Source of the DNA: an uncultured Gammaproteobacteria bacterium
Lineage (GTDB): Bacteria; Patescibacteriota; Patescibacteriia; UBA9934
NCBI GenBank assembly: GCA_964344145.1
Contig: CAYFME010000007.1
Location: 2-64,001 of the forward strand
DNA: 64,000 nt
Direction: 5' to 3'
The notes beneath the pieces were generated by a model, which did no database searches, was not told the origin of the DNA, and saw nothing but the letters and a program-made list of their open reading frames with translations. The translations under genes and the position numbers were made by a program. Shown one piece after another: positions 1 to 60,044 of this stretch (position 1 is the first letter of the stretch; every line of letters begins with the position of its first letter).

Positions 1-637
1 CGGTCAAAAAGCCCGGACCAGCGATGACGGTTTCGTTCTCGCCAAATGATACGTCCGAGATCGTACTGTTTGTCGTCCAGATGAGCGTTGTCGGTTGTGC
101 GGCATTGTTGAGATCCTCGAGCGCTTTGTGTATCCGAGCCCCCCTTGCCCCCCATGACTGGGGGGTCCTCTGCGCCTCCCCTCCAGCTATGGAGGGGCCG
201 GGGGAGGCTGGGTCGCTCGTGACGATGTTAATCAACGTCTCTCCAGTGCTCGTCGAGCGAATAACAGCGTAGCGTAGCAAGCCGGTATGCGTTTTGCGAT
301 CAAAGAAACTCAGTCCTGCCGTCTTGGTCCACGACCGAACATCGGCAAATAGCTTTTCGATTTTTTCATCAGCAAGAAAACAGGTGTGATTATCGATCAC
401 GCGCCACCATTTTCCTTTCTCGCGCATGCCAACGAGTCCTTCAAAGTTGATCACAAAGTCCATCCGATTGCGATAGTGCTCGGTGATAGGTGAGGGAATG
501 ATGGTTTCGCATTGCAGGTCGAGTTCCTTCAGTCCAAACGAACCATTAATATCCGACAGCTTTTGCTGCAGCTGTTTGTCGTAGGGAATATGTGACCAGC
601 GACACGAACCGCAGAGTTCTGGATTTGGGCAAGGCAT
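1..637 (-). CDS. RumA/RlmD-like RNA (uracil-5)-methyltransferase, N-terminal part (gene continues past window start)
   Basis: Minus-strand translation from ATG at 635-637 gives MPCPNPELCGSCRWSHIPYDKQL (CxxC Fe-S motif) ...YRNRMDFVINF...IWTTNSTISDVSFGENETVIAGPGFLT, matching the RumA family pattern. The partial ORF is absent from the track. It contains an in-frame palindromic insert (138-212). Confidence 0.5.
   Translation of the reverse strand, partial: MPCPNPELCGSCRWSHIPYDKQLQQKLSDINGSFGLKELDLQCETIIPSPITEHYRNRMDFVINFEGLVGMREKGKWWRVIDNHTCFLADEKIEKLFADVRSWTKTAGLSFFDRKTHTGLLRYAVIRSTSTGETLINIVTSDPASPGPSIAGGEAQRTPQSWGARGARIHKALEDLNNAAQPTTLIWTTNSTISDVSFGENETVIAGPGFLT
138..212. repeat. Family-1 two-hairpin palindromic element, solo copy, in-frame inside the rumA-like CDS
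   Basis: Sequence gagccccccttgccccccatgactggggggtcctctgcgcctcccctccagctatggaggggccgggggaggctgg contains two hairpins (ccccccatgactgggggg and cccctccagctatggagggg). It is homologous to 5324-5399, 1768-1807 and 2183-2220. It adds ~24 codons (PASPGPSIAGGEAQRTPQSWGARGA) without breaking the frame. Confidence 0.7.
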
Positions 638-699
638 AGGTATGTGTAAGCACGAGCGCCGATCTCTTCGTGGAGACCGGCGTCACGGACGTTGCGTTG

Positions 700-1053
700 T
701 CAGGAGATGGCGGCGTTGTGCTGCTCGAGCATCGACACGAGCTCGCCCCAGGTGCGCGGGAACTTCGGCAGTCCGATGATCTCGCCATCGCGCCCGATCT
801 GCAGACCGCAGCGGACGTCACCGTCGCCCTTGGGCCAGATCGAGACCTCTTGGCGGTCCTCCGTGTGCCCCACGAGCGTCCGGAAGTTGCGCGTGGGCCA
901 GGACGGGTGAGGTCCGTCGCACTGGCTGTCGAGTCGCTTGTCCGCCCCCAGCAGAACGGTGACGTTGCCAACGCGAACGAAGTTGATCAGGTCAGGATGC
1001 GGCACTGCCAGCCTCCTTCGGCTTGGGCAACAGGCTGCGGGCGTCCTCTGCAC
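700..1053 (-). CDS. hypothetical protein in GC-rich insertion (possibly a frameshifted part of one gene with 992..1402)
   Basis: The 117 aa ORF has protein-like composition (HPDLINFVRVGNVTVLLGADKRL...). It lies in a ~63% GC segment with five mutually overlapping ORFs, so the call is uncertain. Confidence 0.25.
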   Translation of the reverse strand: MQRTPAACCPSRRRLAVPHPDLINFVRVGNVTVLLGADKRLDSQCDGPHPSWPTRNFRTLVGHTEDRQEVSIWPKGDGDVRCGLQIGRDGEIIGLPKFPRTWGELVSMLEQHNAAIS

Positions 1054-1402
1054 GGTTGAGCCCGATGACGCTGACCAGCTCGAGCTCGACGAGGAGGTAG
1101 GCCATCAGCAGGCCGAAGGTGTCGGCCCAGATGGGCACGGGGATGCTGATCCCGAGCTCCTCGATCACCAGGTAGAAGACCTTGCCATTGCCGGGCTTGG
1201 CCATCACGCGGTACGCGACGCTGTCGGTCTGGCCGGGGTTCACGTGGTAGATGCCGATGCACTTGCGGTTGCCCACGGGCAGCGGCTCGTCCCAGGCGAC
1301 GTCGTAGGACAGCTCGCCCTTCGGATGCGTGGCCGGCCGGAACCAGTCGCCATGTTTGGTGATCTGGATGCCCTCGATCGTTTCTGGCACACGGTGAGCC
1401 AT
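992..1402 (-). CDS. hypothetical protein in GC-rich insertion
   Basis: The 136 aa ORF (HVNPGQTDSVAYRVMAKPGNGKVFYLVIEELGI...) overlaps 700..1053 in another frame. The C-terminal 40 aa look like frameshift read-through. Confidence 0.3.
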   Translation of the reverse strand: MAHRVPETIEGIQITKHGDWFRPATHPKGELSYDVAWDEPLPVGNRKCIGIYHVNPGQTDSVAYRVMAKPGNGKVFYLVIEELGISIPVPIWADTFGLLMAYLLVELELVSVIGLNRAEDARSLLPKPKEAGSAAS

Positions 1403-1446
1403 CTGGCCTCCATCTATGGCATGTTCCGCAATGAGAGTAGCAAATA

Positions 1447-1474
1447 TTGGAAAAAAAGCAATAATAGGTATACT
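1447..1474 (+). promoter_or_regulatory. sigma70-like promoter for trmH (TTGGAA -16/17- TATACT)
   Basis: ttggaa at 1447-1452 and tatact at 1469-1474. The ATG at 1485 follows 10 nt after. Confidence 0.4.
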
Positions 1475-1484
1475 AGCGTCGACT

Positions 1485-2393
1485 ATGATCGTGATTGCTC
1501 ACAATATTCGCAGTCTGCACAACGTAGGGGCGATTTTTCGTAATGCGGCAGCATTTGGTGTTGAAACATTGTATTTGACCGGTATCACCGCCACGCCTCC
1601 TCGCAAAGAGATCGCCAAAGTTGCGCTCGGAGCACAGGACTTGGTCGACTGGGAGCAGGGGGATGTGGCACATGTGATTGATACGTTGCGTCAAGATGGG
1701 TATCGAGTGTTTGGCTTAGAAGCGGGCGAAGACGCGATTCCGATCGAGGACTTCGCTCGAGAATGCGCCCCCTCCGGCTCCCCCATAACTGGGGGAGGGA
1801 CTCCACGGTCCTCGATCTACCACGGTTCTCGTAAAGAAAAAAGGCGACTTCGCGGTAGTCTGGACTTAAAGTCCATCGCCCAGGAGATGCGGCGCGACCC
1901 AACTCCCGCTGAGCGTGAACTCTGGCAATATCTTCGACGCAAGCAAGTGCTTGGTTATAAATTCCGACGCCAGCACGGTATCGGTCCTTTTATTGTTGAT
2001 TTTTATTGTGATCGCGCGCGCTTGATTATAGAAGTCGACGGAGATATCCACGATGAATCGGAGAACGTGAAGCGCGATGCATTTCGCCAGCAGATGCTTG
2101 AGGACATCGGATATACTGTTATTCGGTTTCGGAATAAGGAGGTTCTTACTGATCCGGACGCGGTTATTGCACGGATCACCATGTGTCTCCCCTCCAGTTA
2201 TGGAGGGGCAGGGGGAGGCGAGTTTCATGGACGGAACATCGCCCTCGTCCTCGGAAACGAAGTAGACGGTATTGATGCGGATGTTCTTGAGTTGCTTGAT
2301 GGTTTGGTGGAGATTCCAATGGACAAAAAACGTTCGCTCAATGTTTCCGTTGCGTCCGGTGTTGCTATGTACGCGTTTGGGGTCAGGTCTTGA
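1485..2393 (+). CDS. trmH: SpoU/TrmH-family (TrmL-like) RNA 2'-O-methyltransferase interrupted in-frame by a 151-codon mobile insertion
   Basis: N-terminal IVIAHNIRSLHNVGAIFRNAAAFGVETLYL and C-terminal HGRNIALVLGNEVDGI...EIPMDKKRSLNVSVASGVAMYAF match the SpoU motifs. The track ORF 1416..2393 gives a 325 aa product versus ~160 aa for TrmL. The start is probably at 1485, downstream of the promoter. Confidence 0.65.
   Translation: MIVIAHNIRSLHNVGAIFRNAAAFGVETLYLTGITATPPRKEIAKVALGAQDLVDWEQGDVAHVIDTLRQDGYRVFGLEAGEDAIPIEDFARECAPSGSPITGGGTPRSSIYHGSRKEKRRLRGSLDLKSIAQEMRRDPTPAERELWQYLRRKQVLGYKFRRQHGIGPFIVDFYCDRARLIIEVDGDIHDESENVKRDAFRQQMLEDIGYTVIRFRNKEVLTDPDAVIARITMCLPSSYGGAGGGEFHGRNIALVLGNEVDGIDADVLELLDGLVEIPMDKKRSLNVSVASGVAMYAFGVRS
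1768..2220 (+). mobile_element. Family-1 palindromic element carrying a DUF559 (Vsr-like PD-(D/E)xK) endonuclease module, inserted in-frame in trmH
   Basis: The A hairpin half (1768-1807) and B hairpin half (2183-2220) are abutted in the cargo-less copy at 5324-5399. Here they bracket 375 bp encoding PTPAERELWQYLRRKQVLGYKFRRQHGIGPFIVDFYCDRARLIIEVDGDIHDESENVKRDAFRQQMLEDIGYTVIRFRNKEV, a DUF559 signature with D and ExD residues intact. Total length is 453 bp, or 151 codons. Confidence 0.7.
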
Positions 2394-2457
2394 ATCTTGA
2401 ATTATGGCGTTTCAAACGGAAAAAATCACATCAATTCAAGATTCAAGACCTGACCCC
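2379..2457. repeat. 25-bp perfect inverted repeat (ggggtcaggtcttgaatcttgaatt / aattcaagattcaagacctgacccc) with a 29-nt loop, spanning the trmH stop and GT2 start
   Basis: Arms at 2379-2403 and 2433-2457 are exact reverse complements. The loop begins with the ATG at 2404. Confidence 0.6.
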
Positions 2458-3168
2458 ATCTTGTCGATCGTTATTCCGACGTTGAATGAGGAAGAGCTCC
2501 TTCCGGATTTGTTGACGTCCATTGCCATGCAGACGATCCAGCCAGAAGTGATTGTCGCGGATGCGGATTCGTCTGATCGTACGCGCGAGATCGCACACGG
2601 CTTTGGCGCACGTGTGGTCGACGGTGGGCTGCCGGCTGTTGGACGAAATGCAGGAGCGGCTGTAGCAAAAGGAGAGATCATTCTCTTTCTGGATGCTGAC
2701 GTCTTTTTGCCAGACGATCATTTTCTCTCACGTCTTCTTTACGAGTTTACAACACGCCCGCTCGACATCGCTACGGCTGACATCATCCCGGAAAGTGAAA
2801 AGAAGTATGACCGCTTCTCGTTTTGGGTGTATAATAGATATGTTCGTTTATGGGGTGCGCGCCATGCGCACGCGCCCGGATTCTTCATTGTCATCAGGCG
2901 CGCGCTGCACGAGAAGACCGACGGGTTTGATGAAACGATTGTCTTTTGTGAAGATCACGAATACGCCGGCCGCGCGGCCAAGCACGGTCGCTTTGGACTA
3001 CTCAACTCAGTTCAGATTCCAACGTCTGTGCGTCGCTTCGACAAAGATGGCCGTTGGACAATTGCGCGTAAGTTTCTAAAGGCTGAGTGGCATCTTCTGT
3101 TCAAAGGACCAATCCGCGACGACCGATTTCATTACACCTTTGGCTATGGCCCTTCGCGAAAAAAATAG
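2404..3168 (+). CDS. family 2 glycosyltransferase
   Basis: The product carries the N-terminal GT-A signatures SIVIPTLNEEELLPDLLTSIAMQT and ILFLDADV. The true start may be the TTG near 2461, after the hairpin. Confidence 0.7.
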   Translation: MAFQTEKITSIQDSRPDPILSIVIPTLNEEELLPDLLTSIAMQTIQPEVIVADADSSDRTREIAHGFGARVVDGGLPAVGRNAGAAVAKGEIILFLDADVFLPDDHFLSRLLYEFTTRPLDIATADIIPESEKKYDRFSFWVYNRYVRLWGARHAHAPGFFIVIRRALHEKTDGFDETIVFCEDHEYAGRAAKHGRFGLLNSVQIPTSVRRFDKDGRWTIARKFLKAEWHLLFKGPIRDDRFHYTFGYGPSRKK

Positions 3169-3832
3169 ACTGTTCGACAAACAACAGGTGAAACACAAAG
3201 AAGTGATCGAGAAACTGGTCACGGAAAGTTCGCCTCGCAAGACGTTTTTGGTGTTGATTTTTATTTCGAGCATTATCGCGGCGCTCGGGTTGTTGAATGA
3301 TAGCGCAGCGATTGTGATCGGCGCGATGTTGGTGGCGCCGTTGTTGTGGCCGGTGTTGGGACTGAGTATGGGTGCGCTTCTGATCGACGGTCGTATGTTA
3401 CGCCTCTCAGCATTTAGCATCGCCGCATCCGTGGTTATCGCGGTTGGCACGGCGATGGTGATTACGTTTTTTTATGTGCCACTTGGGGCATCGCACGAGA
3501 TTTTGCAGCAAACCAACTTTGGATTCATGATCCCGATTGCGATCGCCGCTGGAGCGGCTGCCGCGTTTGCCATTTGTTACGAGAATGTTAAAGAGGTCGT
3601 TACGGGTATTGCCATCTCCGTTGCGTTGTTGCCGCCGCTTGTGACGATCGGCATCGGCATTGGTGGAACGGACTGGGATCTAATGCGTGATGCTGCACAG
3701 CTGTTTGGTATCAACCTCGTAGGCATCATCTTAACCACGTTCGTTATTTTCTTGCTGCTGGGATTCCAGAGCTACCGACGTACGCTCGAGTCCGCAGTGA
3801 AACGTGAGGAAAAAATTCTCAAAGAGAAATAG
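3140..3832 (+). CDS. integral membrane protein (DUF389/TIGR00341-like)
   Basis: The protein is multi-TM and carries the motif AMLVAPLLWPVLG. Confidence 0.5.
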   Translation: MAMALREKNRLFDKQQVKHKEVIEKLVTESSPRKTFLVLIFISSIIAALGLLNDSAAIVIGAMLVAPLLWPVLGLSMGALLIDGRMLRLSAFSIAASVVIAVGTAMVITFFYVPLGASHEILQQTNFGFMIPIAIAAGAAAAFAICYENVKEVVTGIAISVALLPPLVTIGIGIGGTDWDLMRDAAQLFGINLVGIILTTFVIFLLLGFQSYRRTLESAVKREEKILKEK

Positions 3833-3840
3833 GGAGGAAC

Positions 3841-4749
3841 ATGGCTTCTACAATCAAAGGCAAATCATTCACATGGCATCATATCCCGGCGCTTGCTGAG
3901 GGGGATTTTGCGTATCTGGAAAAGCACTTCAAGTTTCATCCGTTGGATTTTGATGATCTTCGAGACGACACGGCATTGCCAAAGCTTGATGTGTACAAGT
4001 ACTACTTGTTTTCCGTCCTGGCCATTCCTCAATACGATGCGGAAAAGCAACTGGTGAGCAAACAGGACTTGGCGATTTTCATTGGTCCAGATTATGTTGT
4101 GACGGTTGGTCGTACTCAGATCGATGCGGTTGATCGATTTTTCGCGCGAGCGAATCGCAGCACGGGACTCAGGCGCGATGCGCTTGGGAAGTCGACCGGC
4201 TACTTTTTGTACAAGTTGCTCGACTATGTCTTCCGCGACGCAAAGATCATCTTGCACGAGCTTACGCGTGAAACACGCCAGATCGAGACGAACGTCTACG
4301 AACACCAGTCGCGTGGAACAACGGAGCGATTGGGAATCATGAAGCGCAACTTGTTGTTCTTGCAACACGTGATTGATCCACAACGATTGCTGATTCACCA
4401 GTTCCTTAACTCGCGCAAGAAGTTTATTCCAAAGGATTTGGATGTCTATTTTGATGATGTGAAAGATACGCTTGATAGCATTTGGATCATCACAGAAAAC
4501 TTGAAGAACATCATTGACAGTTTGTTTGATGTGAATGAGGCGATCTTGTCGCACCGAACAAACCAAATCATTCGCTGGCTTACGATTATCTCGGTCATTT
4601 TGATGCCGCCAACGTTGATCGCAAGTTACTACGGCATGAACGTCAGTGGTCTGCCGTTTGCTGAAAGTATCGATATTGTGAGTGGAGTGATTCTCGTTTC
4701 GGTGTTTGCATTCGTCCTGTTCGTTTTGTGGATTGATAAGAGAAAGTAG
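3841..4749 (+). CDS. corA: CorA-family Mg2+/Co2+ transporter
   Basis: The YGMN (GMN) motif sits before two C-terminal TM helices. Length is 302 aa. Confidence 0.8.
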   Translation: MASTIKGKSFTWHHIPALAEGDFAYLEKHFKFHPLDFDDLRDDTALPKLDVYKYYLFSVLAIPQYDAEKQLVSKQDLAIFIGPDYVVTVGRTQIDAVDRFFARANRSTGLRRDALGKSTGYFLYKLLDYVFRDAKIILHELTRETRQIETNVYEHQSRGTTERLGIMKRNLLFLQHVIDPQRLLIHQFLNSRKKFIPKDLDVYFDDVKDTLDSIWIITENLKNIIDSLFDVNEAILSHRTNQIIRWLTIISVILMPPTLIASYYGMNVSGLPFAESIDIVSGVILVSVFAFVLFVLWIDKRK

Positions 4750-4750
4750 T

Positions 4751-5323
4751 ATGTCTCGCCCGATTCCTGTCGACATCGTGCCGTCCCATGTGTATCTCAG
4801 CCAAGACGATCAGCTGACCTTGTTTGGGCCGGGATATGCGATGACGATCGAGGGTGAGCTCACGCAAAGTGGTCAACATTACTATGAGGAGACCGTGGAT
4901 GTATTTGGACGACTGAAGCGTTCGCTCTCGCTGCGCGTGCTTGGCCCGGCGTGGGAGCATAGTTTTGCCGAACTCACGCCAACGGAAGCAGCGTTTTTAG
5001 GAATGAGTGCGAAGGAAGGGCGCTCAGGAGATCTGGCCGGCGCGGCTGCTTGTCGATTTGTTGGTCCAGCGGGAGAGGTGTCGTTGAAGCAAGGGGTGAT
5101 CATCAGTCAGCCGCATCTGCGTTGCTCTCCTCAAGACGCTCGATCGTTTCATATTAGCAATGGTGACGAGGTTACGATTGAGATCATCGGCAATCATCCT
5201 CGGCGTGTGAGTGGAGTGATTGTGCGCGTGCATCCAACGTTCAAGCTGCAGGTAGATCTTCATGCGGATCATGCTCGCGATCTGTGGATTACTCGACCAA
5301 TACATGCGCGCCTTGTTTCGTAG
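4751..5323 (+). CDS. pduL: PduL/EutD-type phosphate acyltransferase
   Basis: Two tandem repeats with the H.LS..D...FG pattern (PSHVYLSQDDQLTLFG and SQPHLRCSPQDARSFH) are present. The ATG at 4751 overlaps the corA stop. Confidence 0.6.
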   Translation: MSRPIPVDIVPSHVYLSQDDQLTLFGPGYAMTIEGELTQSGQHYYEETVDVFGRLKRSLSLRVLGPAWEHSFAELTPTEAAFLGMSAKEGRSGDLAGAAACRFVGPAGEVSLKQGVIISQPHLRCSPQDARSFHISNGDEVTIEIIGNHPRRVSGVIVRVHPTFKLQVDLHADHARDLWITRPIHARLVS

Positions 5324-5399
5324 CCCCCTCCGGCTCCCCCATAGCTGGGGGAGAGACTCCACGTGTCACCCCTCCAGTCATGGAGGGGCAGGGGGAGGC
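5324..5399. repeat. Family-1 palindromic element, intergenic cargo-less copy (A+B hairpins adjacent)
   Basis: Sequence ccccctccggctcccccatagctgggggagagactccacgtgtcacccctccagtcatggaggggcagggggaggcc starts at the pduL stop codon. Confidence 0.7.
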
Positions 5400-5416
5400 C
5401 GTGATATACTTTTCTT

Positions 5417-6697
5417 ATGAAACGATTTTTCATCATTGCAGCACTGCTGTTTGCCGCACCGACGGTTACTTTCGCGGCAACGGATCTTGAGCTTCGGTCG
5501 TCTCATACGCGTTTTTCAACCGATACGTTTTTGGTTGGTGAGGAAGTGCGCATTTATGCGACCGTGCGCAACGTCGGCGATGTTGATACGACGGGTTACG
5601 TGGCGTTTTATTATAGTGATTCGTTGCTTGGGAGAAGTCAGGTTGTGACGGTGGTTGCCGATGGAAACGACGAGGAGGTGTGGACGGACTTCACGGTCCC
5701 GTCTGATCCGTTCAATATTTATATTCAGATCGACAGCACGTCGCCGCAGGACGAAGATCTTTCAAACAACGCGTATCTCACACCGCTCTATACGCCGATC
5801 TATGATCAAGATGGCGATGGAGTAGAGGATGAGTCGGATAACTGCCCATCAAACGCCAATGCCAGTCAGACGGACACCGACGGCGATGGATTGGGAGATG
5901 CCTGTGACGATGATGATGACAACGATGGTATTGACGACGATGTTGAGGAAGAGATTGGCACCGATCCGCAGGATGCCGACACGGATGACGATGGCGTTGA
6001 GGATGCGCAAGACGCTTTTCCAACGGATAGCAGTCGAACAGAGGAGGAGGTCGTCATTGAGGAGGTCGAAGAGGTTGTAGAAGAGGTGATAGTGGACGAA
6101 CAGGAGTCCACCGATGAGGCTGAGGCCTCAGAGGGCGTTTCAGATGCAGATGATCATTCAGATGATGCGGAGCCTGCCGAGGAATCTGTCTCCGTTGACA
6201 CACCGCTGATTGAACGCGCGTCTGGATCTATTTTAAACGTCTCACCTGATTCGTCGTTTGTCTATGTGCGGCGCGACTGGAAGACGTATGAGTTCGAGGC
6301 ACTCACACCCGAAGGATCGTATGCATCGCTGCAGTGGGATTTTGGGGATGGGACGAGCTCGGTGCAGCGTACGATTTCGCATTCGTTCCTCAAACCAGGA
6401 AGTTACGAGGTGACCCTTACGGTCACGGACGCGGATGGGAACGAAACAGCTGACACGCAAGAAATTGATATTTCACTGTTCCATCTTGCGAATCCGATGA
6501 TTCAGATGGTTTTGGGCATTCTGTTGATCTTGTTGATCCTCTCAACCATGGCGTTGCGACGAGCACATCGTGCGGTTGAGGAAGCAGACGAGAAGATGAA
6601 AGCGGCGGCGAGAAAGCCGAGAGCGAAGAAGCAAGCAGTAAAGAAGAAGGCTCCGGCACGAAAGAAGTCACAAAAAAGTGAATCAAAAAAGAAGTAA
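5417..6697 (+). CDS. cell-surface protein with thrombospondin type-3-like Ca-binding repeats, a PKD-like domain, a C-terminal TM anchor and a Lys-rich tail
   Basis: A signal peptide [20 protein letters not shown] is followed by DxDxDG repeats ([39 protein letters not shown]). A PKD-like segment [16 protein letters not shown] is also present. The tail is a TM helix plus K-rich sequence. Confidence 0.6.
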
Positions 6698-6828
6698 CCT
6701 AAGAACTTCCCTATTTGAGGCTAGTTTCGGTGCGCGGCGAGCACCGAAGTAAGACGACCTTCACCGGTCGTTGTCGAGGAGCACAGCCGCAAGCCGAAAA
6801 TAGACCAAATAGGGAAGTTCTGACTAAC
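6698..6828. repeat. structured intergenic element closed by a 16-bp perfect inverted repeat (agaacttccctatttg / caaatagggaagttct) with internal GC-rich hairpins
   Basis: Arms lie at 6702-6717 and 6806-6821. The interior holds ttcggtgc-gcggcga-gcaccgaa and cgacc-...-ggtcg hairpins. The element sits between the surface-protein stop and the murJ ATG (6829). Confidence 0.4.
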
Positions 6829-8436
6829 ATGTTCTCCTGGCTTTCAGGTAAATCCAACACGATTACAAGCGCGGCGGCCATCGTCGCCTTGTTTTCGATT
6901 TTATCGCGGTTCGTCGGCTTTATTCGAGACCGTATTCTTGCAGGCGCGTTTGGAGCATCCGACACGCTTGATATTTACTTTGCTGCATTTCGCATTCCAG
7001 ACCTGATGTTTCAGCTTGTGGTTGTGGGTGCGCTTTCGGCTAGCTTCATTCCGATTTTCACAAAGTATTACCACCGTAAGCGTGTAAAAAAGGCTTGGAA
7101 GTTCACAAATACGATGCTGACACTGCTAGCCATTGGATTTGGGGTAATCACTGTTGTGATGATGTTTGTTGCCGATCCTCTTGCCGCTCTTGTTGCGCCG
7201 GGATTCGATCCCGAGAAGAGTGCAGCTGTTGCGGATATGTCGCGCGTGATGTTCCTGGCGCAGCTGCTGCTCGCGCTTTCGATGATCTATGGTTCCGTGC
7301 TCCAGGGAGCGAAACGATTTTTTCTCTATTCACTCGCACCAATTTTTTACAACATCGGTATCATCGTTGGAGTTGTGTGGATTGCAACGGAGGATTGGCC
7401 GATCGGATTGGCCTGGGGTGTTGTGCTTGGAGCGGCTCTGCATTTCCTCACGCAGTGGCTTGGTGCTCGTGACCTTGGTCATCGGTTCAAACCGCGTTTT
7501 GTTCTCAAAGACAAAGATGTCGTGTACACGCTCAAGCATATGATGCCACGCACGCTAGGGCTTGCTGTGGGGCAGGTGAATATCTTTTTGATGACAGCAA
7601 TAGCCTCTACGTTGGCGGTAGGGTCCGTGACAGTGCTGCAGTTCGCGTACAACCTGAACTTTTTCGCCGTTGGGATCATTGGCGTGTCGTATGCCATTGC
7701 GGCGTATCCGACGCTGTGTGAGCTGGCGAGTGATAGAAAGAAAACAGCGTTGGTGAAAACGATCTCAACGACCGCACGGCAGATGCTGTTCTTCCTTGTG
7801 CCTGCGACAGTGTTGTTTATTTTGTTGCGCGCGCAAGTTGTGCGTCTTGTTGTTGGTGCTGGCCAGTTTGATTGGGAGGCGACGATCCTCACGGCCAACA
7901 CGTTGGGATTCTTTGCTCTCTCGCTCACGTTACAAGCGCTCGTATTTCTACTCGTTCGTGTTTACTTCGCGCGCGGACAAACCGTAGCGCCGTTTATCAT
8001 TGGTGTGATAGCGGCGATTGTTCACGGAGCCTCAGCAATCATTCTTACGCAATCGATGGAAGTGGTTGGACTAGGGGCGGCATATTCAATTGCCATTGCG
8101 GTGCAGTTTTTGTTGCTTTGGGGTTGGTTGCGCACGCAAATGGGCAGCCTCGATGAGCTTCGAATAATGAAATCACTGTGGATTTTTATTGCTGCTGCCG
8201 TGGCGTGCGGTGTGACGACGCAGGTGGCAAAAACGCTCGTGGTTGAGCTTATTACGCTAGACACATTCTTTGGGGTTTTGGCCCAATTGTTGATTGCTGG
8301 TGGGGTAGGGCTTATTATTTACGTTTTGGTGGCGTATCTATTTAAAAGCCAGGAGCTTTTGGATGTGTTGGGAGGACTAAAACGCAAGCTTATGCGTAGG
8401 CATCATCCAGAAGAGGCAATTTTGGACCAAAGTTAG
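6829..8436 (+). CDS. murJ: lipid II flippase MurJ/MviN
   Basis: The sequence MFSWLSGKSNTITSAAAIVALFSILSRFVGFIRDRILAGAFGAS...DIYFAAFRIPD is the MurJ signature. The track ORF start (6715) reads through the structured element, so the ATG at 6829 is used. Confidence 0.8.
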   Translation: MFSWLSGKSNTITSAAAIVALFSILSRFVGFIRDRILAGAFGASDTLDIYFAAFRIPDLMFQLVVVGALSASFIPIFTKYYHRKRVKKAWKFTNTMLTLLAIGFGVITVVMMFVADPLAALVAPGFDPEKSAAVADMSRVMFLAQLLLALSMIYGSVLQGAKRFFLYSLAPIFYNIGIIVGVVWIATEDWPIGLAWGVVLGAALHFLTQWLGARDLGHRFKPRFVLKDKDVVYTLKHMMPRTLGLAVGQVNIFLMTAIASTLAVGSVTVLQFAYNLNFFAVGIIGVSYAIAAYPTLCELASDRKKTALVKTISTTARQMLFFLVPATVLFILLRAQVVRLVVGAGQFDWEATILTANTLGFFALSLTLQALVFLLVRVYFARGQTVAPFIIGVIAAIVHGASAIILTQSMEVVGLGAAYSIAIAVQFLLLWGWLRTQMGSLDELRIMKSLWIFIAAAVACGVTTQVAKTLVVELITLDTFFGVLAQLLIAGGVGLIIYVLVAYLFKSQELLDVLGGLKRKLMRRHHPEEAILDQS

Positions 8437-8503: not shown

Positions 8504-8597
8504 GTAAGTAGACCTTAAAAACTCTGCTAAAGAACCAGCGAACAGATTACTGGCATCGACCCAAATGGGGTCTTTGTCGGTTTTTTTGTTAGCACTC
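8504..8597 (+). ncRNA. candidate small RNA or leader transcript (~94 nt) between the consensus promoter and an intrinsic terminator; identity unknown
   Basis: The promoter at 8469-8497 and a terminator hairpin plus U-tract at 8566-8597 bracket the region. No ORF lies inside. No match to tRNA, SRP or preQ1 motifs was recognised by eye. Confidence 0.3.
8566..8597 (+). terminator. rho-independent terminator (cgaccc-aaat-ggggtcg stem + TTTGTCGGTTTTTTT)
   Basis: A GC stem is followed by a 7-T run. Confidence 0.45.
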
Positions 8598-8660
8598 TCA
8601 AAGTGATTCACTTGCTGGATCTCTTCGAGAGCGCGGACCAGATGAAGCGCTCCAGAAAAG
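8593..8660. repeat. Island-A ~70-bp hairpin repeat, copy 1 (GCaCTCTCAAAGTGATTCAC...CTTCGAGAGCGCGGACCAGATGAAGCGCTCCAG)
   Basis: A 12-bp imperfect stem (GCGCTCTCAAAG/CTTCGAGAGCGC) has a ~19-nt variable loop and a conserved 3' tail. It ends ~10 nt before the GTG of ORF 8668. Confidence 0.6.
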
Positions 8661-8984: not shown

Positions 8985-9055
8985 GGTGCCGCTCTCAAAG
9001 TGATTCACACGTTGGATCCCTTCGAGAGCGCGGACCAACTGAAGCGCTCCAGAAT
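8985..9055. repeat. Island-A hairpin repeat, copy 2
   Basis: Sequence CGCTCTCAAAGTGATTCACACGTTGGATCCCTTCGAGAGCGCGGACCAACTGAAGCGCTCCAG lies ~10 nt upstream of the ATG at 9065. Confidence 0.6.
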
Positions 9056-9412: not shown

Positions 9413-9590
9413 CTCCTCCAACTTGTAACTTCGGAACCGTTCCCGGTCAGCTGGACGCTGCCGGGGTTCCCCATAGCTAATCACGCGATCCTGCGTGGTG
9501 GGCTACGGTGGAGCCGACGCTCCCCACATGCGTACAAACGTCCTGTTCTCCATATTGCGGCAACGCAGGTAACGGAGGCAGGCGAGTAAT

Positions 9591-9966: not shown

Positions 9967-9994
9967 CGAGTCTCCCGGCGTCGCACTCGCGCGG

Positions 9995-10052
9995 CGCCGG
10001 CGCTCTCAAAGCGACTCATTCGTGGGTCCCTTCGAGAGCGCGGACCAACATT
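9995..10052. repeat. Island-A hairpin repeat, copy 3 (lacks the 3' tail)
   Basis: Sequence CGCTCTCAAAGCGACTCATTCGTGGGTCCCTTCGAGAGCGCGGACCAACAT. Confidence 0.55.
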
Positions 10053-22276: not shown

Positions 22277-23272
22277 ATGGCAAAGATCCTTCTACCAACA
22301 CTAGACTATCCTCCCCGCACCGGTGGCGTTGCGCGTTACTTGGAGGCAATCAAACAGACCTTGGGGGATGACATGGACGTCCTCTTTTTTGACGATGCCC
22401 CTGGACGACTGTCGATGCTGTGGACGCTTTGGAAGCGTTCGCGATCGTATGAACAGGCTTGGACAAGTCACATTCTTCCAATTGGAACGATGTTGTGGTT
22501 GTTACGGCGGCGTTATAGTGTCTTTTTGCATGGCATGGACTTTGATCTTGCGCGGCGTAGTGCGTGGAAGCGATGGCTTACACGACGTATTCTGAGGCGC
22601 GCTCAGCACGTGTTTGCGAATTCACACGCGCTCGCTTCGGAGATTGGGTCGTTTTGCAACCGAAGGGTGGAAGTTGTGTATCCATGTGTGAGCGATGCGT
22701 TTGTAGAGGCATCGAATGTTGTGCGTCGCGAATCTCACGAAGGCGTAACGCTTCTGACGGTTGGACGATTAGTTGAGCGCAAAGGACATATGGATATGCT
22801 AGAGATCGTTCGTCGCAACAACGATCTGAAATACGTCATTGTCGGCGACGGACCAATGCGTAAGACGATTGAGGACTTTGTCGATGAACATGAGCTTGCC
22901 GATCGCGTTGAGTTATTACAGTCCGTTCCTGATCGCAAGCTGCCGTCGATCTATGCGCGTGCGGATATCTTTGTTATGCCTACACATAAATCTGAAGGTG
23001 ATCGTGAGGGCTTCGGTATCGTGTATCTTGAGGCGCAGCTGTTCGGCACGCCGGTTATCGCTGTTTCTCATCCCGGAGTTAATGAGGCGGTTGTTGAAGG
23101 GGTGGGTGGATTATTGATAAACAGCCATGAGGACCTAGATACGGCTGTAAAAAAGCTGGTTAATGGCCGAGAACTTCGGGAGCAGTTGGGTCGACGAGGG
23201 CAAGAGTTCGTTAAGGCAAAATTCACGAGAGAACACCAGTTTTCTGCTTTGAGGAGCTACATTCCCTCGTGA
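22277..23272 (+). CDS. GT4 (GT-B) glycosyltransferase
   Basis: The ExFGxxxxE motif EGFGIVYLEAQLFGTPVIA is present. Confidence 0.75.
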   Translation: MAKILLPTLDYPPRTGGVARYLEAIKQTLGDDMDVLFFDDAPGRLSMLWTLWKRSRSYEQAWTSHILPIGTMLWLLRRRYSVFLHGMDFDLARRSAWKRWLTRRILRRAQHVFANSHALASEIGSFCNRRVEVVYPCVSDAFVEASNVVRRESHEGVTLLTVGRLVERKGHMDMLEIVRRNNDLKYVIVGDGPMRKTIEDFVDEHELADRVELLQSVPDRKLPSIYARADIFVMPTHKSEGDREGFGIVYLEAQLFGTPVIAVSHPGVNEAVVEGVGGLLINSHEDLDTAVKKLVNGRELREQLGRRGQEFVKAKFTREHQFSALRSYIPS

Positions 23273-23276
23273 ACAT

Positions 23277-24011
23277 TTGGTACGATCGCCACAAATGTTA
23301 ACCGATATGGATCTTGTTTCGATCATCATCCCAACCTATCAGCATGCCGATAGTCTGCCGGTTTGCCTTGATTCGGTATTGGCTCAGACGTACGAGCCTA
23401 TTGAGGTGATCGTCGTGGACGACGGGTCGACGGACAATACGCAAGAGGTGCTTGCGTCGTATGCGCAGCGCGTGATGATGATCAGGCAAGAAAACCAAGG
23501 ACCTCAGTTGGCACGCATGCGCGGGTTTGAAGAGTCGAAAGGCGCATACGTGATTTTTTGTGATGCAGACGTCGAAATGCGACCAGACATGTTGGAGAGG
23601 TTGTACGGCGTGCTGCAGGCACATCCTGAAGCAAGTTATGCGTACTGCGGTTTCAGGTTTGGCTGGAAGCGATTTCATCCAGTGCCATTCGATGCACAGC
23701 GCCTCAAGCGCCATAACTATATTCACACGACTAGCCTCGTACGTCGTACGGACTTTCCAGGCTTTGACCCCGAGGTGAAGCGTCTACAAGATTGGGATGT
23801 TTGGCTGACGATGCTTGCACAAGGGAAGAAGGGTGTTGTCGTGGCTGAGGAGTTGTTTACCGCGCATATCGACGGTTCGTCACGCATCGGAACCGCCTGG
23901 ATGCCGTCGTGGATCTACAAACTGCCATGGAATATGATCGGATGGCGGCCGAAGCGTCTGCGAAAGTACGAAGAGGCGAAGCGGGCGCTCGTGAAGAAAC
24001 ACGGTTTATGA
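23277..24011 (+). CDS. family 2 glycosyltransferase
   Basis: VSIIIPTYQHADSLPVCLDSVLAQTY and IEVIVVDDGSTD are GT2 signatures. Confidence 0.7.
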   Translation: MVRSPQMLTDMDLVSIIIPTYQHADSLPVCLDSVLAQTYEPIEVIVVDDGSTDNTQEVLASYAQRVMMIRQENQGPQLARMRGFEESKGAYVIFCDADVEMRPDMLERLYGVLQAHPEASYAYCGFRFGWKRFHPVPFDAQRLKRHNYIHTTSLVRRTDFPGFDPEVKRLQDWDVWLTMLAQGKKGVVVAEELFTAHIDGSSRIGTAWMPSWIYKLPWNMIGWRPKRLRKYEEAKRALVKKHGL

Positions 24012-30379: not shown

Positions 30380-32126
30380 ACGTAACTTGCAGTATGCAGC
30401 TGTCAGGAAGTTGTTGCAAGTAGGGCAGTAGTTTGCCGTATTTTTGCGGTGGTGTCAAGATCTCGATCGTGTCGTTAATGCGAAAGACAAGTGCATTTAG
30501 CTGCTTTGCCTTCTGAATAACCGTATCTAGACGGGCATCCTTCGTTCCGTGAACGCGGATATTCACTCGGTAACGAAACGGCGGGAGGTGATACGTGTGT
30601 CGCGTTTTCCGTTCGGTGTTGATGAAGGATTCAATGCTCTGCATCGGACGGATGAGTGTTGGCGTGAAGGTCTGGATGAGGCATGTTGTGCGCTGCGTTT
30701 GTGCAAAGAGCGCCAGACGATGGACACGCGAGGCCATTTGTATTCCTGCGTTGGCGTCACCACCCATGTGAAGATCGGTACACGCGTCGGCAACAATACC
30801 AACATTCCATCGCTTGAATGCACGGTGCAGGGTTTGAAAGAAGTATTCGGTCACAAGAAGGATGTCGGCGCTCAATTGTCGATGCTCCTGTTTGTCGACG
30901 ACAGCAATCGAAGCGTTTGGGAACGCTTGCTTCCAAGATTCGATTAGGCGTTTGTTGCCAATGCCGCGCGGCTTAAGGTTCACGCCCTGGCATGACGGAC
31001 AGGACTCCGGGATCCACATTTCCGCATGACACACGCTACAGACAAGGTCGCCGGAGCGCATTTTCGGAACAGATCCGCAGGAACCGCAGTAGGGAATGTG
31101 TCCGCAATCTTTGCACTGCAACCTTTTTGCGTATCCTTTGCGGTTGTACAGAACGATCGCGCGTTTGTTTGCAGCGAGCGCGTTGTCGATATCTGATTTG
31201 AGGCTGTGAGAAAGAAACGGTGTGGACGTCTTTTCGTCTTGGGCCGTGAGATCTACGATACGAAATGCGACATCGGATGCATCAAGCTTTTCTTGATCGG
31301 GACGAATGCGTGGAATCGAACCGCAAGAGAGAAATTCGGCGTTGTGTTGTTTGGCGAGAAGACGTGCCGCGTGGGCCGCATCAAAGCGAGGGTTGCGATC
31401 GTATTGCACGTGGTCGGGATGCGTAGGGTCATAAACGATCACGGCCTCAATCTTTTTTGCTGACAGAAGCGAAGCTTGCTTTGTTCCAACGAGAATATCG
31501 ATCACGCCTTTGCGCCAGTCTCGGATGATTTGCGCGCGTTCGTTGTGGGGTGTGTGGCCATGCAGGTACGCAACGGTCTTGGTATCGGGTAGATATGTGG
31601 CAAGATCGCGTGCGTCTGTTTCGTGGGGCGTGATGATGAGCAGTTGATGCTCAAGCGTACCTGACAGTCGATAGGCCAGAGTGATACACGTTTCCACAGA
31701 ACCCTGCACAAATAATACGCCACCGGGTGGCGTATTGCGGACACCGGTTACCTGCTGAGCGATTTTTGGATGTACAAGGGGATTGAGCGTTGGTTTCGGT
31801 CGCACGGCTGGTCGGGGCTTGCGGTCGATGCCGATGAGCGTTTGATAAAACAGTGTCGATGGTGACTGGACAATCGTCTGCGCGATCGTTTCGATACGAG
31901 TGATATCTGACGGCAGAAAGAGTTGTGGAATGACGACGCGATCGATACTCGATAGTCGCTTATCCGTTCCAGCCTCTGCCTTGATCTGACGAACCACGCC
32001 CAGTACGCTTCGTCCCTTCAGCGGTACGCGCACAAGATCACCAACGCCGACGTCCTCATTGCACGTGTAATCAAAAACGCCGAACCTCCTGGGCAGGCGC
32101 GTGACAGGGTAGACCTCGGCGAACAT
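30372..32126 (-). CDS. priA: primosomal protein N' (PriA) homolog with degenerate helicase motifs
   Basis: The C-terminal Cys-rich zinc-binding region CKDCGHIPYCGSCG...CSVCH...CPSCQG is PriA-like. Walker A reads GSVET, not GSGKT. DEEH is replaced by TPHE. A family-2 palindrome encodes NTPPGGVLF at the Walker A position. Confidence 0.7.
   Translation of the reverse strand: MFAEVYPVTRLPRRFGVFDYTCNEDVGVGDLVRVPLKGRSVLGVVRQIKAEAGTDKRLSSIDRVVIPQLFLPSDITRIETIAQTIVQSPSTLFYQTLIGIDRKPRPAVRPKPTLNPLVHPKIAQQVTGVRNTPPGGVLFVQGSVETCITLAYRLSGTLEHQLLIITPHETDARDLATYLPDTKTVAYLHGHTPHNERAQIIRDWRKGVIDILVGTKQASLLSAKKIEAVIVYDPTHPDHVQYDRNPRFDAAHAARLLAKQHNAEFLSCGSIPRIRPDQEKLDASDVAFRIVDLTAQDEKTSTPFLSHSLKSDIDNALAANKRAIVLYNRKGYAKRLQCKDCGHIPYCGSCGSVPKMRSGDLVCSVCHAEMWIPESCPSCQGVNLKPRGIGNKRLIESWKQAFPNASIAVVDKQEHRQLSADILLVTEYFFQTLHRAFKRWNVGIVADACTDLHMGGDANAGIQMASRVHRLALFAQTQRTTCLIQTFTPTLIRPMQSIESFINTERKTRHTYHLPPFRYRVNIRVHGTKDARLDTVIQKAKQLNALVFRINDTIEILTPPQKYGKLLPYLQQLPDSCILQVTYG
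31714..31736. repeat. Family-2 palindrome (AATACGCCACCGGGTGGCGTATT) embedded in-frame in priA
   Basis: Its core is identical to the copies at 34289-34351. Confidence 0.65.
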
Positions 32127-34265: not shown

Positions 34266-34288
34266 GGCGTGATTATAGCACGTATTTA

Positions 34289-34351
34289 GAATACGCCACC
34301 CGGTGGCGTATTCCTCGTCGACTGCAGAATACGCCACCGGGTGGCGTATTC
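34289..34351. repeat. Family-2 palindromes, two inverted 25-bp copies (GAATACGCCACCCGGTGGCGTATTC and its reverse complement) 13 bp apart
   Basis: Copies lie at 34289-34313 and 34327-34351 in the divergent promoter region. Confidence 0.7.
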
Positions 34352-39221: not shown

Positions 39222-39626
39222 ATGACAATGAAAAAGGCTTGGCTTATTATCGGTATCGTTCTTCTCGCGCATGCGATTGGGTTGGTTTTCGACCTGTATG
39301 AGCTTATTGAGTGGTATGACGTTCCTATGCATGCAGGCGGTGGATTTGCCATGGGGGCGCTAGGATTGGCGATTTGGAACGAAGGCATTGAGGAGGTGCG
39401 GTTTAAAGGGGCTCTGCAACGTCATTTGAAATGGTGGCTTGTTCCTGGAATTGTCCTCGGGTTCGTGGCCTTAGTTGGCGTCCTTTGGGAAGTGCATGAA
39501 TGGCTATTGGATGAGTTTGTTGGTGGAGGTACGCTGCGCCAACCGGATGTTGCCGATACGATGGCCGACTTTATTTTTGATCTTTTGGGTGGTATAGCTG
39601 CTTTGGCTATCTGGAGACGTAAGTGA
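39222..39626 (+). CDS. hypothetical membrane protein (3-4 TM)
   Basis: The 134 aa product is hydrophobic and includes HEWLLDEF and DFIFDLLGG. Confidence 0.5.
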   Translation: MTMKKAWLIIGIVLLAHAIGLVFDLYELIEWYDVPMHAGGGFAMGALGLAIWNEGIEEVRFKGALQRHLKWWLVPGIVLGFVALVGVLWEVHEWLLDEFVGGGTLRQPDVADTMADFIFDLLGGIAALAIWRRK

Positions 39627-39653
39627 ACATTTGTGGCGATCGTCACAAATGTT
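39626..39653. repeat. Family-3 palindrome copy a (AACATTTGTGGCGATCGTCACAAATGTT), between 39222..39626 and the wecB-like gene
   Basis: A 28-bp near-perfect palindrome with one mismatch pair has a CGATCG core. TTGACC follows it. Confidence 0.65.
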
Positions 39654-39664
39654 GACCAACTAGT

Positions 39665-59451: not shown

Positions 59452-59483
59452 GGCGGTAGTTTAGCACACTTACGAGAGGTCAA

Positions 59484-59508
59484 TATTTATGGCGATCGCC
59501 ACAAATTG
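59484..59508. repeat. Family-3 palindrome copy b (ATTTATGGCGATCGCCACAAATT), 35-57 bp upstream of the helicase-nuclease start
   Basis: A perfect GGCGATCGCC core sits in symmetric flanks. TGACC is adjacent on the minus strand. Confidence 0.6.
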
Positions 59509-59512
59509 TAAC

Positions 59513-60010
59513 CTAACGATATTCGTCGAGGATCCGATAAATGTAGACGTATTCTTCAACCCCAACCTCTTTTATAAGCTTACGAAAATTCTCAATAACA
59601 TTCGTTGTTCCGTGCCAGACACTTCGTTGAAGAAGTGTGAAGCCAGCCTCCTTAAGAAGCCTTCTAAGCATCGCCCTCACATTTCTCATTGGCTCGGGAA
59701 TGTCGAATACGAGCAAGTTGGCCTGCCCCTCTGGTAGACGCACCTTTTCGTCAATGATTTGTCGCTTTAACGCGTGTACACGACCCTTGCTTGTAAGTCG
59801 GTACTCAATTTTTTCACCCTTTTTTCGAAGTTCGATAAACCTCCTCTTAGCTAAGTATCTGACTTCGCGCATTCGTCTCGCCTCCATCTTCCATGCGACA
59901 CCATCGAGAGAGTACGTTCTATGTGGCAACGCCTCTCCGAGCTCGGAAGCAACATTAAATAGACTGACTAACGTGTCACTACATTTGGACATAGATTGGT
60001 GGGTGAACAT
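59513..60010 (-). CDS. winged-helix + Cas2-like (type I-E Cas2/VapD fold) domain protein; PaaX-like regulator candidate
   Basis: The C-terminal LLVFDIPEPMRNVRAMLRRLLKEAGFTLLQRSVW...VYIYRI parallels the Cas2 beta1-alpha1-beta2 pattern [33 protein letters not shown]. The N-terminus is wHTH-like. Start codon is the ATG at 60008-60010 (MFTHQS...) or the one at 59990-59992 (MSKCSD...). Confidence 0.5.
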   Translation of the reverse strand: MFTHQSMSKCSDTLVSLFNVASELGEALPHRTYSLDGVAWKMEARRMREVRYLAKRRFIELRKKGEKIEYRLTSKGRVHALKRQIIDEKVRLPEGQANLLVFDIPEPMRNVRAMLRRLLKEAGFTLLQRSVWHGTTNVIENFRKLIKEVGVEEYVYIYRILDEYR

Positions 60011-60033
60011 TTGTGGCGATCGTACCAAAAGTT
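60005..60033. repeat. Family-3 palindrome copy c (AACATTTGTGGCGATCGTACCAAAAGTT), overlapping the start region of the wHTH-Cas2-like gene
   Basis: It shares 21 identical bases with copy a (gtgaacatttgtggcgatcgt). Confidence 0.6.
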
Positions 60034-60044
60034 TACCACACCCT

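Follow-up and report, generated by a model that had tools for sequence, protein, structure and literature searches.

BoxC or potential intrastrand triplex (PIT) motifs occur in hundreds of bacterial genomes, where they mark rearrangement-prone sites, and catalogues of them date back to the 1990s. DUF559 proteins, in turn, form a nuclease family that is very large and has hardly any biology assigned to it. The two are found together in the small palindromic element that is the subject of this report, the ends of which resemble BoxC/PIT motifs in design and the full-length form of which carries a DUF559 nuclease between them. The element occurs in a 64,000-nucleotide stretch of DNA (positions 2 to 64,001 of contig CAYFME010000007.1, GenBank assembly GCA_964344145.1), referred to here as the window, from a Patescibacteria (Uhrbacteria-like) genome. 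Its full-length copy lies in frame within a gene for an RNA methyltransferase of the SpoU/TrmH family, and two short copies without the nuclease lie within a RumA-like gene and directly behind pduL.

Several described systems come close to this arrangement. BoxC, PIT or triplex (TM) motifs were described by Bachellier et al. in the 1990s and by Hoyne and Maher (2000), both cited by Holder et al. 2015 (PMC4666352). In Escherichia coli, BoxC elements are strictly intergenic, and their close inverted pairs, five in number, always consist of two unlike types (PMC4666352). Holder et al., the last study devoted to TM motifs, linked them to local rearrangements and reported that no mobility function, whether transposase or integrase, had ever been found nearby. 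A known case of palindromic repeats in frame within genes is that of the Rickettsia palindromic elements (RPEs; Ogata et al. 2000, 2002, as summarized in PMC10969869). A third system comprises doublets of repetitive extragenic palindromes (REPs), or REPINs, and a REP-associated tyrosine transposase, or RAYT (Bertels and Rainey 2011, PMC3116915). With respect to the nuclease, DUF559 has a Vsr-like fold (PMC3424549), its fusions with SPOUT methyltransferases were noted in alphaproteobacteria in 2007 (PMC1829167), and a DUF559 protein of Caulobacter, VsrA, behaves as a methylation-linked nuclease and leads to DNA damage in vivo (PMC12907096). In-frame palindromic repeats, BoxC/PIT motifs and the fold of DUF559 are each, then, already known. 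In the searchable literature, which excludes subscription-only papers, no report links DUF559 to BoxC/triplex-motif repeats, places a nuclease open reading frame (ORF) between two such motifs, describes the in-frame life of such a module inside host enzymes, or connects ycjD with BoxC.

The reading preferred here, at a rough probability of 0.5, is that the element is a nuclease-associated, REPIN-like mobile module, and that its in-gene copies survive in permissive loops. Three copies occur in the window, all within its first 5.4 kb and none in the remaining 58 kb. They and their parts are as follows.

1767–2219, plus strand: full-length element of 453 bp or 151 codons, set in frame into the SpoU/TrmH ORF and consisting of left motif, DUF559 ORF and right motif
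1767–1797, plus strand: left end, with C-rich arm GCCCCCTCC (1767–1775) and hairpin CTCCCCCA-TAAC-TGGGGGAG (1778–1797)
1866–2186, plus strand: DUF559 (Vsr-like PD-(D/E)XK) core by Pfam, amino acids 151–257 of ORF 1416..2393
2189–2219, plus strand: right end, with hairpin CCCCTCCA-GTTA-TGGAGGGG (2189–2208) and G-rich arm GGGGGAGGC (2211–2219)
138–208, plus strand: short copy 1, 71 bp by its conserved ends (~72 bp inserted), with both ends and no nuclease; left hairpin 148–165, right hairpin 178–197, G arm 200–208; its host is the minus-strand RumA-like gene
5323–5399, plus strand: short copy 2, 77 bp, intergenic; hairpins 5334–5353 and 5369–5388

The original prediction, made from the letters of the window, had counted four related two-hairpin segments. 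The hairpins are real, but the elements number three, as the segments at 1768–1807 and 2183–2220 are the two inverted ends of the single 453-bp element. These segments form an inverted repeat (36 nt, 78% complementary) and bracket 375 bp coding for the DUF559 domain; both the nuclease-encoding full-length copy and the BoxC/PIT three-block design of the ends had been overlooked. Hairpin 2 (CCCCTCCAGYYATGGAGGGG) is found at 178, 2189 and 5369, and hairpin 1 is found exactly at 1778 and 5334 and in a degenerate, still self-complementary form at 148–165; shuffled sequence is expected to yield 0.00 occurrences in either case. Each hairpin has an 8-bp stem when folded as DNA. In every copy the left hairpin (CTCCCCC) is systematically unlike the right one (CCCCTCC), and the same is true of three loci from other genomes, one of which (L001) is syntenic with positions 1–8000 of the window (the others are L002 and L006). 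The difference lies in the position of a T:A pair in the stem. In the left hairpin of short copy 1 (148–165) this pair has undergone a compensated change to C:G. Stems are otherwise invariant and loops variable, and the predicted hairpin structure is, by this evidence, maintained through compensated changes.

At their ends, the short copies match the 453-bp element with 95% and 93% identity. Short forms (71–80 bp, counting one from another genome) amount to a left end and a right end joined at a 5-bp CCAYG microhomology, which in the full-length element reads CCACG at 1803–1807 and CCATG at 2179–2183. The anatomy of the module and the existence of its miniature derivatives are thereby established. 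No further copy was detected in the 64 kb by an nhmmer profile of the ends or by the three-block motif finder described below. A 10-mer that had been regarded as another fragment of the family is located at 9469–9478 (not 9464–9473). It lacks a hairpin partner and matches by chance.

The resemblance to BoxC/PIT motifs is evident in the arms that lie outside the hairpins, since in each end the outer arm mirrors the hairpin arm next to it. The left end reads GCCCCCTCC followed by CTCCCCC...GGGGGAG, and the right end reads CCCCTCC...GGAGGGG followed by GGGGGAGG. Triplex motifs are defined by three blocks, namely a pyrimidine (Y) block, a complementary purine (R) block that pairs with it as a hairpin, and a mirror R block, with stems of ≥6–7 nt and loops of 1–6(8) nt. 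A custom finder for this motif (7-nt blocks, ≤1 mismatch) returned exactly five sites in the 64 kb, all of them element ends. Among these are 1768–1798 (minus polarity), 2188–2218 (plus), 5324–5355 (minus) and 5369–5398 (plus). Five of the six ends are thus recovered, and the sixth (138–165) is degenerate. Judged by this arrangement, the ends share the three-block architecture of the BoxC/PIT intrastrand triplex motifs, from a different sequence family.

Likenesses extend beyond the order of the blocks and the short loops, which in the present case were computed as hairpins only. Both groups are G/C-rich with conserved stems and variable loops, both form close inverted pairs of two unlike types (type A and type B in E. 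coli), and both lack a nearby transposase and any promoter or terminator signal. The differences are equally clear. Blocks are CCCCTCC/GGAGGGG/GGGGAGG and CTCCCCC/GGGGGAG in the element, versus CCCTCNCCC/GGGNGAGGG/GGGNGAGGG in E. coli, and the element ends do not match the E. coli TMECO consensus CCCTCNCCC-N3-6-GGGNGAGGG-N3-GGGNGAGGG. Unlike the strictly intergenic BoxC of E. coli, two of the three copies lie in frame inside genes (TrmH and RumA). A nuclease ORF between two motifs has not been reported for BoxC, and the pair polarity in the window, with arms outside, is the reverse of that in most E. coli pairs. The idea that the repeats might act as terminators when intergenic found no support, as there is no T tract, no Rfam family scored above threshold (spurious miRNA-hairpin matches only), and two of the copies lie inside ORFs. 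It may be added that pairing the left end with the right end would give T:G and C:A mismatches, a candidate Vsr-type substrate. This was left as speculation, as the mirror-repeat (triplex) design is a simpler account of the left/right difference.

The interior of the 453-bp element matches DUF559 (PF04480) with E = 6.7e-37 and 126 bits, against a Pfam cut-off of 20.6 bits, and a Pfam search of the element returned DUF559 and MTES_1575 only. Positions of the acidic/His motif are intact (IVDFYC...EVDG.IH), and residues D78, E89, D91 and H95 are invariant in an alignment of homologues. The family profile matches a solved DUF559 protein (PDB 3hrl, E = 1.5e-28) and, more distantly, the group I intron homing endonuclease I-Bth0305I (PDB 3r3p, E = 4.8e-5). 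Within the element the ORF has neither a start nor a stop of its own. Instead, it reads through both motifs, which become Gly/Pro/Ser-rich linkers: the left end encodes APSGSPITGG and the right end PSSYGGAGGG, and the junction peptides of the resulting TrmH-DUF559 chimera are …ARECAPSGSPITGGG… and …PSSYGGAGGGEFHGR…. An AlphaFold2 (AF2) model of the chimera gives the DUF559 domain a predicted local distance difference test score (pLDDT) of 87–96, with low-confidence linkers on either side that correspond to the element ends. Close homologues (~50% identity), from Patescibacteria and other groups, retain both motif peptides in the forms APSxSPIxGG and PSIYGGxGGG. In these homologues the ORF covers both ends and begins and terminates a few codons beyond them, in host DNA that is not homologous. 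For instance, elements of the same family lie directly downstream of trxA, where the start codon abuts the stop of the upstream gene. An intein or intron was considered and rejected, as no Hint/intein Pfam match and no group I/II intron signal (Rfam) were obtained, and the insert ends in GGAGGG followed by E.

Comparison with related genomes was made at the genes that host or adjoin the three copies.

1485–2393, plus strand: SpoU/TrmH RNA 2'-O-methyltransferase; host parts 1485–1766 and 2220–2393, with the SpoU Pfam match split in two
2–634, minus strand: N-terminal part of a RumA/TrmA-family RNA uracil-5-methyltransferase, running off the window; its L001 orthologue matches PF05958 with E = 1e-27
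4751–5323, plus strand: PduL-type phosphate propanoyltransferase (Pfam PTAC, E = 9.8e-38), upstream of short copy 2 and not truncated by the element

The full-length element occupies a short variable loop of TrmH, just before the IALVLGNE motif. More than 100 TrmH orthologues with Uhrbacteria/Patescibacteria names, 143–150 amino acids in length and up to 80% identical, lack the insert. Orthologues of RumA are without the 138–208 block, and the insertion site there is a variable inter-domain linker. The comparison with orthologues that the original prediction had called for therefore shows the insertions to be real, and its picture of a palindromic repeat family in frame inside two coding genes, similar to RPEs, holds. 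It was likewise right about the copy at 138–212, which keeps the frame of the minus-strand RumA-like ORF, contains no stop and yields PASPGPSIAGGEAQRTPQSWGARGA (138–208); the ORF is open through 138–208, and its minus-strand frame reads ...IVTSDPASPGPSIAGGEAQRTPQSWGARGARIHKALEDL... there. The copy at 5324–5399 had been said to begin at the pduL stop and does so, its start being at 5323, the G of the TAG at 5321–5323. ORFs 24..272 and 5284..5490 are, as supposed, read-throughs of the repeats. A target preference for RNA methyltransferases, which had been suggested, rests on n = 2 and is not supported: elements of this family are also located after trxA, a short copy is found between a stop codon and a terminator, and PriA, HsdR and an Eco57I-like methylase contain DUF559 modules whose flanks are related. 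The in-frame status is better explained by selection, given that four of the six frames of the short element are stop-free and that both sites are variable loops or linkers.

The same sites are occupied in some genomes and empty in others. L001 has no copy in RumA and no element after pduL, with PduL ending at the same residue, and it has the DUF559 element in the same TrmH loop. Another Patescibacteria locus (L085, P0237) carries in that very loop of TrmH, at 1790–1860, a short doublet in frame (…CCCCTCCTTTCCAAGGAGGGGTTAGGGGAGGT…) with the blocks CCCCTCC / GGAGGGG / TTA / GGGGAGG. In a metagenomic locus (L080), an 80-bp short copy fits precisely between a TAA stop codon and an intrinsic terminator, much like the window copy at the pduL stop. 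The internal junctions of short copies differ by lineage, with 10+5 nt of the interior kept in the window and ~16+2 nt in L080.

Comparison of the window with L001 indicates that both the nuclease and its host have been under purifying selection. Values of non-synonymous (pN) and synonymous (pS) divergence were 0.25 and 0.76 for the N-terminal half of TrmH, 0.29 and 0.94 for the DUF559 core, and 0.24 and 0.81 for the C-terminal half of TrmH. As synonymous sites are saturated and non-synonymous change is low, selection on the nuclease and on both halves of TrmH is established. The element ends had a pN of 0.21–0.26 and a lower pS of 0.4–0.5. The two genomes have near-identical nucleotides at these ends but only ~65–70% identity in the host flanks, which means that the DNA or RNA sequence itself is constrained at the ends.

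Insertion polymorphism at the TrmH site is established too, with occupied alleles (window, L001) and empty alleles (the >100 orthologues) in homologous genes. Their distribution is patchy. Over the 143 columns of host-only TrmH, the window protein is 66% identical to that of L001 and 78–80% identical to insert-less orthologues, and the L001 protein is also closer to insert-less proteins than to that of the window. This patchiness, together with the L085 doublet in the same loop, calls for repeated gain at one permissive loop or for repeated precise loss, and either implies mobility.

The association of DUF559 with three-block motifs is not confined to this genome. A set of 79 DUF559 loci was assembled from GTDB genomes of many phyla, using core-domain peptides only for retrieval. 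Significant inverted repeats flank the gene in 44 of the 76 scorable loci. At 29 of these 44, no copy besides the flanking two lies within ~12 kb, and the other 15 have extra solo or doublet copies, such as the four nuclease-less doublets in 11 kb at L022. The density of three-block motifs is 3.37 per kb up to 260 nt from the DUF559 core and 0.086 per kb elsewhere (39-fold), and the cross-phylum association of DUF559 with the motif is considered established. The ORF is open through both repeats at 13 of the 44 repeat-flanked loci, while at the others a start and a stop belonging to the ORF itself fall between the repeats. Read-through fusions involve RecF, RecQ, SufS, MPG and Cas4, and DUF559 modules with related flanks are also found in frame in PriA, HsdR and an Eco57I-like methylase. 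At one locus (L077), two DUF559 copies (2440–2970 and 5927–6366) with the same flanking motifs lie ~3.4 kb apart on a single contig, and a complete nuclease-less doublet is located directly upstream of the first.

A similar arrangement exists in E. coli K-12, where the only DUF559 gene, ycjD, is 168 bp away from the motif listed by Holder et al. as TMECO no. 9 (1,351,204–1,351,239). In this region (L084; NC_000913.3, 1,351,150–1,351,850), a degenerate BoxC-like motif overlaps the ycjD stop, so that the order is ycjD, degenerate motif, a ~45-nt duplicate of the 3' end of ycjD, and TMECO/BoxC no. 9. A 47-mer containing TMECO no. 9 is present in all 5426 complete E. coli genomes, at a median of 15 places per genome, and ycjD is present in 3378 of them (62%).

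Of the described systems, REPIN-RAYT offers a close parallel. It too combines dispersed inverted doublets of a short GC-rich palindromic motif with a single gene flanked by the same motifs (PMC3116915), a combination that suggests an enzyme-substrate pair. The enzyme here differs in being a PD-(D/E)XK nuclease (Vsr-like DUF559) rather than an HUH/Y1 transposase, and the module differs in its third, mirror block, in the possibility of copies in coding DNA, and in a low copy number in the genome sample. RPEs (PMC10969869) likewise sit in frame in unrelated housekeeping genes and add a peptide where protein function tolerates it. They are ~100–150 bp long and are not known to have an autonomous protein-coding form, whereas the present family has short forms of 71–80 bp and a nuclease-encoding full form. 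It is also found in Patescibacteria and has triplex-motif ends, and the likeness to RPEs is one of architecture.

Two further comparisons are with MITEs and with homing endonuclease genes. MITEs, or miniature inverted-repeat transposable elements (non-autonomous derivatives of insertion sequences), share with the short copies the possession of terminal inverted repeats in common with a longer, protein-coding parent (93–95% identical here). They differ in that the present element has no target-site duplication at the five junctions and a parent that encodes DUF559 only, with no known transposase; a classical DDE MITE is ruled out on these grounds. Homing endonuclease genes of the Vsr-like/EDxHD kind (I-Bth0305I) resemble the element in their distant nuclease relationship, in presence or absence at one site of a conserved gene, and in the lack of a target-site duplication. 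Here, by contrast, there is no intron or intein scaffold, the ORF is translated within the host protein, the inverted repeats are of hairpin/triplex form, and the sites of insertion share no sequence relationship. At the TrmH site, the window and L001 do not have conserved host flanks, an observation that speaks against a long homing target of the classical type.

Under the mobile-module reading, the DUF559 nuclease would recognize the motifs on either side of it, or cut at them, whether these are present as duplex, hairpin or triplex. Repair of the break by copying could then allow the module to spread or persist, in a homing-like or REPIN/RAYT-like manner. Short forms would be either non-autonomous derivatives or in-situ deletion scars. 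Expression would be borrowed from the host, through in-frame fusion as in TrmH or through a start codon placed at the upstream stop as at the trxA loci. The in-gene copies may be those that selection let through, being a multiple of three in length, stop-free, and situated in variable surface loops, and for these same reasons the host enzyme would stay functional.

Several observations weigh against this reading. No motif was detected at ~23 of the 79 DUF559 loci, and where the polarity of the motifs around DUF559 could be assigned, 10 loci were of the window type and 18 of the reverse type. BoxC-like repeats evidently persist without the nuclease, given that they occur in every one of the E. 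coli genomes and ycjD in only part of them. Neither a target-site duplication nor a conserved target sequence was present at the five junctions inspected. The short form is rare, in that the metagenome collection, when scanned with a strict two-hairpin pattern, yielded one match only (L080, 1258–1337). To our knowledge, PD-(D/E)XK nucleases do not act as lone transposases. Finally, the SPOUT part of the chimera was modelled by AF2 with low confidence. The model was accordingly dropped as an argument for retained methyltransferase function, and the case for that function is made entirely from sequence conservation.

Among alternatives, the first holds that the repeats are autonomous BoxC/PIT structural elements, which form triplexes or hairpins, are prone to recombination and spread or arise through host processes, and that DUF559 is an ordinary Vsr-like repair gene, repeatedly captured between them or with a neighbourhood that attracts them, and with no role in mobility. 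It draws on the local rearrangements and lack of nearby transposases that Holder et al. 2015 (PMC4666352) reported for TM motifs, on the 38% of E. coli genomes in which BoxC persists without ycjD, on the methylation-linked activity of Caulobacter VsrA (PMC12907096), and on the variable motif polarity around DUF559. This alternative is nevertheless rather unlikely, because the 39-fold enrichment is specific to DUF559 flanks and at 29 of the 44 repeat-flanked loci the flanking copies stand alone in ~12 kb. Furthermore, the design of a gene between two motifs recurs in many phyla with a matching pair of ends each time, and the ends are conserved in nucleotides along with the ORF.

A second alternative grants mobility to the full-length DUF559 element alone and regards the short copies at RumA and pduL as in-situ deletion scars between CCAYG microhomologies. 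Such scars would account for the joining of left and right ends at a common CCACG/CCATG, for junctions that are lineage-specific (10+5 nt in the window versus ~16+2 nt in L080), for the rarity of short copies, and for the L085 doublet in the exact TrmH loop that full-length elements occupy elsewhere. They fit less well with the many near-identical doublets seen in other genomes (such as four in 11 kb at L022) and with the five BoxC pairs of E. coli, both of which are easier to understand as copying of a short form, and none of the relatives examined had a full-length copy at the site in RumA or behind pduL. This explanation is accordingly held to be unlikely. That TrmH-DUF559 is instead a selected functional fusion, with the nuclease recruited to an RNA methyltransferase and the GC-rich ends serving as linker-coding sequence only, is highly improbable: purifying selection on both domains in two diverged genomes, the DUF559-SPOUT fusions of alphaproteobacteria (PMC1829167) and the many fusion partners that are DNA-metabolism proteins would fit, but the ends show constraint at synonymous sites and fold into hairpins in which changes are compensated, they recur in RumA and in intergenic DNA with no gene between them, the insert is missing from closer relatives of TrmH, and the same element family is free-standing after trxA.

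If the mobile-module reading is extended beyond this genome, DUF559 proteins may be the missing enzymatic partners of BoxC/PIT repeats across bacteria. The ~450–700 bp modules would then represent a hitherto unrecognized class of tiny, PD-(D/E)XK-driven mobile elements, with nuclease-less doublets (BoxC pairs and the short copies of the window) as their non-autonomous offspring, an open-ended in-frame variant in Patescibacteria and Chloroflexi, and YcjD as a BoxC-associated nuclease. This broader proposal is tentative and, on present evidence, somewhat doubtful as a whole. There is nonetheless a realistic chance that an enzymatic partner of BoxC-type repeats is revealed here, which would provide a possible enzyme for repeats that have gone 30 years with no known origin. 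The association also gives both nuclease and motif a testable function in a model organism, through ycjD and TMECO no. 9 of E. coli. At the window locus itself, a nuclease domain can apparently ride inside essential enzymes of minimal-genome bacteria without destroying them. This bears on the survival of selfish DNA in genomes with almost no intergenic space, as well as on mis-annotated "fusion" proteins.

Additional features of the window deserve mention. Around the TrmH gene, a GC-rich island at 640–1480 separates it from the RumA-like gene, with 65% GC versus ~50% in the flanks. Overlapping minus-strand ORFs in this island (700..1053 and 992..1402) have no Pfam match, and L001 lacks the whole 640–1480 block, the RumA-like gene and trmH being ~65 bp apart there. 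At 2378–2458, two arms of 26 nt (TGGGGTCAGGTCTTGAATCTTGAATT / AATTCAAGATTCAAGACCTGACCCCA) form a perfect inverted repeat around a spacer of 29 nt, which spans the trmH stop and the start of the next gene, for a glycosyltransferase; the sequence of this repeat is unrelated to the family studied here.

Other repeats are located farther along the window. A second repeat family has four copies of a 36-nt palindrome centered around GCGATCGC (GTGAACATTTGTGGCGATCGTCACAAATGTTGACCA), which are 78–100% identical, at these positions:

23269–23304
39623–39658
59479–59514
60003–60038

A third, small palindromic repeat (AGAATACGCCACCCGGTGGCGTATTC) is present at 31712–31737, 34288–34313 and 34326–34351, with two of the copies 38 bp apart. 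Direct repeats at 8595–8657, 8992–9054 and 9988–10049 (77–96% identical) lie in or next to a GC-rich region at 9–11 kb and suggest duplicated gene segments. More GC-rich blocks occur at ~27–29 kb and 49–50 kb.

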